From assembly GCF_024700885.2 (NCBI RefSeq), contig NZ_CP117016.1: DNA of 64,000 bases; one strand, given 5' to 3'. Origin of the DNA: Escherichia coli (GTDB lineage: Bacteria > Pseudomonadota > Gammaproteobacteria > Enterobacterales > Enterobacteriaceae). The notes beneath the pieces are model-generated. The model worked only from the letters and a program-made list of their open reading frames with translations. It did not search any database and was not told the origin of the DNA. The position numbers and the translations under genes were made by a program. Shown piece after piece: positions 59,083 to 60,570 of the stretch; positions within the stretch are counted from its first letter, which is position 1; the number at the start of each line of letters is the position of its first letter.

Positions 59083-60570
59083 ACCGACTCCTGATTCAAT
59101 TGTATGATGGTATTCATTGAACAGAACAATGGATCCCCCACCATTGCTGACCGCAAAACATTTACACGATCAATACTGCGCGTAATATAATTAAAAATCC
59201 AGCATTCTCAATCCATTACGAAAGAAGATGGCATTGTGGAATAGCCAGACTTCCTCGTGTTAACGTCCGACAAAATGCGTCATTGACAGCGGTTTCTGTG
59301 GATTGACACATTTCATTCAGATAATGAATTAATGCTACTGCCGGACCAACCAGCAAACGGGCATTGTGTTCTGAAATCCAGGCTATTGATTCAACGTCAG
59401 CGACAGATCTGCGCTGTAAAAGAACTTGTAAAACAACGCAATAGAATTATCCGGAATGGTGGCGACTATGCACTAGAACACCACAATTTCGCTCTCTCGG
59501 TAAGGCACTGTCACAGCATTCAACAGAATGTGACTTGCCAGATTTATTAGCGCCACCAGATGTTTAACCGGGTAACCACGACCCAGTCGGGGATATATTC
59601 CATCTTCTCGCTGACATCATCAAGAATAAAAAGGTTTATCACACTCAGAGCAACGTTCTTCAGCAGGCGGGATAATTCTTCAACATTTAAAAGATGTGTT
59701 ATTAAAGGCATACAAACTGGACGTATTGTATTTTCTTTTGGTGGTTGACCTAAGGTAGCAGTTTATCCTGATGCGCTGAGATTTCTGTAATATCTACGTC
59801 AACATTCTCCTCGAATAGAAAATGCAGCCTCGGCAAGTGATTCACATTTTTTAACAAAACGTTGTTAGCGTGCCATTTTCAGAAGCTCTCCAAGAAAGCG
59901 AATTCTTTTCTCAAATTCTGCATTCTCAGACACAGCTTTCTACTCCATGGCAATGGCCCAAATACGAAGTTGCTCAGGATCATTAGTGGTGCTGAGAAGT
60001 TAAATAACCATGCGGAGTACCACTCGTCATCACGTATTTATATATCATGAAGCTATTGTTGTGTTTTGTACATCAGTAGATGTATTCTGATATACTCCTT
60101 TTGCTAGACATAACCTTTCACCTGCTTGCAAAGCTTCTGTGTTCTGACATTGCCAAATTGTTGCAATTCTGTATCCAGCCTTCTTTCAGTCATAGCTTCG
60201 GGCCGCGATAAGACTCACTGATCTGACCCTGATTCCTCTTGCAGACTTTATAGACCAATTAAAATGCAGTTTCTGCAGGTCAACGTCTGACCATCATTGT
60301 CATCACTCTGGCCATTAGAGTAACCTTCTGCATTCATCCTTTTGTAAAAAGTTTATGTCAGTATCAGCAATTAACCGGACCTGATACTGATATGAGTCTT
60401 ACCGCATATACGGTCAATTTCAGCAATTAATTACATTATCCACGCCAAAGTGTTTGTCATCGCAATGATGGTACCTTCTTTCAGACACCATTTTTTCAAC
60501 TCCGTTTTCCACGGACCGCACTCTTATGTCAAGAGTGCGGTGATCCTACCCACGTAATATGGACACAGGC

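Follow-up and report, generated by a model that had tools for sequence, protein, structure and literature searches.

Remnants of cbiG and of three insertion-sequence families in the relic DNA between cobU and a defective IS3 copy in Escherichia coli

In the 64,000-nucleotide stretch of E. coli DNA analyzed here (the window) the start codon of cobU, which is encoded on the minus strand (ORF 58537-59082), ends at position 59082, and the left end of an IS3 copy (tgatcctaccc...) lies at 60541, so that the original prediction had placed the boundaries of the intervening interval, 59083-60540, correctly. It was also right in describing this DNA as AT-rich: at 41.4% its GC content is lower than that of cobUST (52.5%) and of the window as a whole (52.6%). 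The further claim, that the interval offers no assignable gene and no recognisable motifs, did not hold up. There is no intact gene in it, but about 90% of its length can be assigned by homology to a relic of cbiG and to fragments of IS4-, IS66- and IS110-family elements (Table 1). All of the assigned pieces are on the minus strand, i.e. the strand of cobU, and about 8 bp (59378-59385), together with the precise junctions, fall outside any piece. Moreover, known pseudogenes match across the interval, as the same DNA is annotated in K-12 as yeeH (b4639), yoeG (b4640) and yoeH (b4641) at the edge of CP4-44 that faces cobU; mapped from K-12, these correspond to 59386-59472, 59479-60011 and 60380-60538, respectively.

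Table 1. Features assigned in the interval between cobU and IS3 and at its right boundary
Feature	Position	Strand	Evidence
cobU 5' leader and proximal promoter region	59083-59215	-	promoter scan, published hexamers
cbiG relic, last 54 codons and stop	59216-59377	-	homology to IAI1 fragment, NF004463 match of parents
IS4-family transposase internal fragment, codons 166-228 of 445	59386-59574	-	homology, NF033592, PGAP
IS66-family TnpC N-terminal fragment (relic), residues 1-151 of 511	59568-60011	-	tblastn, DNA alignment
IS66 tnpB-tnpC spacer and tnpB 3' end (about codons 100-126)	60012-60126	-	DNA alignment
IS110-family 3' non-coding right end (probable)	60127-60379	-	68% nucleotide identity to L005 (plasmid CP057768)
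IS110-family transposase C-terminal fragment (probable), about residues 285-337 of 339	60380-60538	-	tblastn
Truncated palindrome, 10-bp arms, 5-nt loop	60516-60540		remainder of 18-bp perfect palindrome
Defective IS3 copy bounding the interval	60541-61754	-	96.3% identity to K-12 IS3A

The piece adjoining cobU carries on the minus strand the promoter hexamers TTGAGA-16-TATATT, with the -35 and -10 elements at 59211->59184 and 10 of 12 positions matching in a promoter scan. By genomic SELEX, Shimada et al. (2014, PMC3946193) list the same hexamers for a constitutive sigma-70 promoter that drives cobUST. Conservation of the first 128-188 bp extends even to those E. coli genomes that have no further upstream DNA in common. 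Of the earlier suggestion that the interval could hold the cobUST promoter plus a pseudogene or sRNA region, the promoter and the pseudogene material are thus borne out, and the sRNA is not supported by the Rfam and folding results given below.

Immediately upstream lies the piece that PGAP labels in E. coli 042 as a 'cobalamin biosynthesis protein' pseudogene. It shows 75% identity over 60 aa to a 119-aa fragment in E. coli IAI1, and the alignment to IAI1 reveals that the island junction at 59377/59378 truncates it near codon 87. Its parent is an Escherichia ORF of 144 aa whose counterpart is the N-terminal third of CbiG: the full versions of 144-145 aa match profile positions 1-126 of 351 of NF004463 (cobalt-precorrin-5A hydrolase) with E ~1e-21, a score far below the 546-bit cutoff of this model. 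Pfam returned no match, and a profile made from the alignment of the stubs recovered only chance matches to gp41 (E ~0.2) when compared with PDB. Since the parent ORF matches CbiG positions 1-126, the source of the relic is taken to be the N-terminal third of cbiG, and cbiP, the gene that would be expected next to cobU from the Salmonella gene order, was rejected; the island then trims the relic to 54 codons. The piece in the window is accordingly best read as a remnant of the N-terminal CbiG domain that is no longer a CbiG. Among E. coli strains the ORF that is left ranges in length from 113 to 145 aa. The 144-aa stub is still open in E. marmotae, E. albertii and a cryptic Escherichia clade (3001-3435 in our loci L016, L017 and L018), and its pairwise dN/dS is about 0.3, compared with 0.02-0.04 for cobS; it may be under weak constraint and not fully dead.

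The next piece is derived from the interior of an IS4-family transposase and comprises K-12 yeeH and the 3' part of yoeG. Against the intact 445-aa copy on plasmid CP148372 it shows 73% amino acid identity (E = 6e-24) and 77% nucleotide identity with one in-frame stop; it is also matched by NF033592 (E = 1.4e-4) and is labeled in 042 by PGAP as an 'IS4 family transposase' pseudogene. The bulk of yoeG is instead the N-terminal fragment of an IS66-family TnpC (46.7% identity, E = 2e-24 in tblastn), which is interrupted by at least five in-frame stops and by local frameshifts. At the DNA level it is about 71% identical to IS66-family elements carried by 346 plasmids. The 71% alignment to two of the IS66 copies (L004 and L006) spans 59569-60126 and runs from tnpC through the tnpB-tnpC spacer into the 3' end of tnpB, where it stops at 60126; the protein match to the tnpB C-terminus, at 60054-60107, is weak (E = 0.08). 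The end of tnpB and the start of tnpC are arranged and oriented as in the IS66-family copies on the IncF plasmids MW390526 and CP057768. No homology was found beyond TnpC residue 151 or to orfA/tnpA. A complete IS66-family element is about 2.5 kb long, of which the window retains about 560 bp, without the DDE domain, tnpA or the terminal inverted repeats. This piece is a relic and not a mobile element. The spacer/tnpB portion contains a promoter-like site, TGTACA-17-CATGAT, at 60072->60044, and these hexamers have been given as the promoter of yoeG (PMC3946193).

The remaining two pieces are probably from an IS110-family element. The transposase fragment, which is K-12 yoeH, was recovered by tblastn at 50% identity over 53-56 aa (E = 4e-9) and has two in-frame stops; the reference IS110-family protein used as query itself matches NF033542 with E = 1.5e-99. 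The right end was recognized by a nucleotide alignment of window 60126-60412 with positions 3348-3643 of locus L005, from plasmid CP057768 (E = 3e-21), that crosses the transposase stop codon. The assignment to this family is a probable one, depending as it does on just 50% amino acid identity over about 55 aa and 68% nucleotide identity over 287 bp. The intact element of CP057768 (L005 3331-4751) has 13-bp subterminal inverted repeats (ATGAACGCATCCC / GGGATGCGTTCAT), and in it the transposase end and the 3' non-coding end are contiguous, just as in the window. Compared with it the window copy lacks: 1) the catalytic N-terminal 284 residues with the DEDD domain; 2) the left end; and 3) the terminal ~15 bp with ATGAACGCATCCC, i.e. 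the subterminal inverted repeat, no counterpart of which is conserved in the right end of the window. The CP057768 element is inserted in the tnpC gene of an IS66-family element, and the fossil in the window likewise abuts IS66-family sequence, although the position within IS66 differs between the two; this hints that their lineage may target IS66-family elements. IS110-family elements are RNA-guided, and a fossil of the structured guide (bridge) RNA in the right end was considered; it was ruled out, as the fold of the window copy is on a par with that of shuffled sequence (z = 0.06, compared with -2.2 for the intact homolog). No Rfam family matched the intact copy of the right end.

All the transposase and cbiG fragments contain stops or frameshifts and are devoid of catalytic domains. 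A Pfam search of the six frames of the interval, with stops read as X, recovered no family at E <= 1. Decay or short length puts the fragments beyond the reach of domain models, and their homology surfaced only in comparisons with specific relatives. Because neither the IS66/IS110 nor the IS4/IS66 junction coincides with insertion-sequence termini, the order of insertions and subsequent deletions among these elements cannot be reconstructed.

The interval is 100% identical to that of E. coli 042 and many other strains. Among 5,426 complete E. coli genomes it is found at the level of at least 80% in 3,445 and at least in part in 5,403. With K-12 it is collinear and gapless from 59473 to 60541 (99.25% identity), and two differences flank this segment: 1) K-12 carries an IS5H insertion in the CTAG at 59473-59476, whereas IS5 is absent from the window; 2) in K-12 an entire 18-bp palindrome is followed by yoeA, whereas in the window the defective IS3 sits in the right arm of this palindrome and the DNA beyond is different. 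On the cob side (58001-59476) the identity to K-12 is 97.6%, lower than that on the island side, which suggests that the two sides of the junction have had different histories, e.g. through recombination or a more recent spread.

The inverted repeat that had been noticed at the IS3 junction is real, although its coordinates had been given 2 bp off. Its arms are ccgcactctt (60516-60525) and aagagtgcgg (60531-60540), and with the first T of IS3 added they extend to 11 bp (60515-60525 and 60531-60541). When the whole 64-kb window was block-shuffled and perfect inverted repeats with a stem of at least 10 bp and a loop of 3-8 nt were counted, the mean was 0.13, which speaks against a match by chance. 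In K-12, CFT073 and others the full 18-bp perfect palindrome, TCCACGGACCGCACTCTT-atgtc-AAGAGTGCGGTCCGTGGA, is present, and in the window its right arm is interrupted by IS3. The hairpin is not a feature of IS3, but pre-existing target DNA that was cut by it. The left arm codes for the 'ECGPW' of the IS110 transposase fragment, and within the right arm the similarity to the intact transposase gene fades out; hence the palindrome sits at the point where the IS110 fragment is truncated on its 5' side. At the corresponding place the intact transposase gene has only a quasi-palindrome, and it is plausible that the palindrome was perfected by template switching on such a precursor. Aligned with K-12 IS3A, the IS3 copy shows an internal gap of 44 nt; PGAP labels the copy as a frameshifted pseudogene, and its flanking triplets, cgg and cct, do not form a 3-bp target duplication. 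The gap and the missing duplication together imply that a rearrangement followed the insertion of IS3. Beyond it are found a 5'-truncated phosphotriesterase-related gene, a gamma-glutamyltransferase fragment and a decayed ISL3-family transposase.

Taken together, these observations lead us to view the interval as non-functional relic DNA, with a probability of about 0.9, except for the cobU-proximal ~130 bp that hold the cobUST promoter and leader. It is ordinary relic DNA that is already annotated, and in this sense already known.

Several other readings were weighed against this one. The hairpin at the junction might have a function, as a terminator, as a site of recombination or as a target that IS3 prefers. 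The full palindrome folds as single-stranded DNA with -24 kcal/mol (z = -8.3), far above chance, and IS3 directly follows '...gtgcgg' in 470 genomes; an uninterrupted palindrome together with the yoeA side is kept in 2,186 genomes. However, the junction is one and the same in all the IS3-occupied genomes, which can thus go back to a single insertion. As an intrinsic terminator 60516-60540 was passed over by the terminator scan, and there is no T-run on either strand. Further, the derivation of the left arm from a transposase and the fading of homology within the palindrome give it the look of a scar at a truncation point, and in two genomes a G->A change in one arm is uncompensated. We therefore regard a function of the hairpin as improbable, and prefer to see it as part of the relic.

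A different role can be sought in transcription. Both strands of the yoeH segment are transcribed in K-12. The antisense RNA is broken down by RNase III, and Rho terminates it by way of an RNA-polymerase-binding aptamer (PMC6847712). Thus, the relic DNA is not transcriptionally silent, and a minor regulatory side-effect on cobUST or a neighbouring gene is conceivable. It might even be proposed that the convergent transcription of yoeH and the AT-rich stretch, near which H-NS binding has been reported in K-12, act as a transcriptional buffer that sets the expression of cobUST now that the ancestral cobalamin riboswitch is gone from E. coli, and, separately, that the palindrome arose by template switching and is a preferred IS3 target; we give little credence to this proposal. 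The RNA of the yoeH segment is pervasive transcription of AT-rich foreign DNA and not the product of a defined gene.

The K-12 label 'cryptic prophage CP4-44', the annotation of which begins at the equivalent of window position 59338, would make the interval a prophage remnant. This too is very unlikely, as 59379-60540 is without phage matches apart from one, and its assignable content is entirely insertion-sequence debris. The sole match in a phage collection, 284 bp at 99.6% to 'Campylobacter phage B14', looks like E. coli contamination. The record in question (MG065683.1, 2,504 bp, unannotated) matches window 59473-59756, and contamination of the record with E. coli DNA is the most likely explanation.

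We deem it extremely unlikely that cobUST is under the control of an RNA from the interval, be it a cis-regulatory one (a cobalamin riboswitch or leader) or an sRNA. The two-way transcription of yoeH in K-12 might be cited for it, as might the cobalamin riboswitch (RF00174, 106-113 bits) that lies between pocR and the cbiG stub in the two loci of related species that were scanned, those of E. marmotae and E. albertii. However, the riboswitch DNA of these outgroups is located upstream of cbiG codon 1, in a part that is deleted in the window, and the riboswitch is missing from the IAI1 locus as well. A permissive-filter Rfam search of 58500-61000 at E <= 1 recovered no RF00174 and only snoR127 with E = 0.96, a chance match, and the fold of the IS110 right-end fossil is, as noted above, that of shuffled sequence.

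Finally, the three plus-strand ORFs that the original prediction had listed (59332-59550, 59560-59748 and 59862-60050) are present as given, but they were inaccurately called low-complexity, being antisense frames over the decayed transposase fragments. That these ORFs of 62-72 aa, or a minus-strand ORF of 54 aa (59547-59711) that PGAP calls in some genomes as the hypothetical protein WP_001128468.1, encode real small proteins is the least credible reading of all, as the former are antisense to transposase-derived sequence and without a Pfam match in any frame, and the latter is an open stretch of the decayed TnpC, aligned to about residues 130-151, that is called inconsistently.

The relic reading can be placed in the history of the locus by comparison with other Escherichia. 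In E. marmotae and the cryptic Escherichia clade the locus carries pduA, pduF, pocR, the 144-aa cbiG stub and cobUST. E. albertii (L017) has the same upstream part, and in the stretch from the cbiG stub to ldtA cobS is called, but neither cobU nor cobT, which suggests that cobalamin salvage has decayed further in this species. In IAI1 the locus comprises cobUST, the 119-aa cbiG stub, a C-terminal fragment of PduV (matching PF10662 with E = 1e-26) and tmaR, and is without the riboswitch. Both the window and K-12 have an island between about codon 87 of cbiG and the PduV fragment, and the interval is its cobU-proximal edge. On the other side, the C-terminal 60 residues of the 'putative uncharacterized protein YoeF' of K-12 (L015 2076-2432) are a PduV/EutP fragment that is 87% identical to the IAI1 relic; this fragment in yoeF marks the far end of the island. 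Lawrence and Roth (1995, 1996) reportedly described how the cbi/pdu region was lost on the way to E. coli. The comparison agrees with such a loss in that cobUST is kept without the cbi genes, and the cbiG stub and the pduV fragment flank the deletion.

From the fragments, coordinates and comparative states that were observed we infer the following order of events and the deletions in it: 1) in the ancestral Escherichia the cbi genes would have been lost, with the 144-codon cbiG stub left behind pocR and the cobalamin riboswitch, as is still seen in E. marmotae and E. albertii. 2) In E. coli a deletion that began inside the stub or a short way upstream of it would have taken out pocR and the pdu operon and ended within pduV, yielding the state of IAI1. 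3) The island (CP4-44 in K-12) may then have taken the place of cbiG codons 1-86 and part of pduV. 4) The edge of this island was probably an IS66-family element that had already been hit by other insertion sequences, and that would later have been eroded by deletions. 5) In the 042-like lineage IS3 would subsequently have entered the right arm of the 18-bp palindrome, and a rearrangement would have replaced the DNA beyond.

The result removes one candidate 'dark' region and in itself matters little. It does provide an assignment finer than that of PGAP, with yoeG resolved into an N-terminal fragment of IS66 TnpC and an IS4 piece, and with yoeH as a probable C-terminal fragment of an IS110-family transposase. 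This is of use for annotation and for studies of cobUST regulation. For the genus, the comparison outlines a stepwise decay of cob/pdu in Escherichia that would lead from a locus with riboswitch and cbiG stub, through the loss of the riboswitch, to the arrival of the island and finally of IS3.
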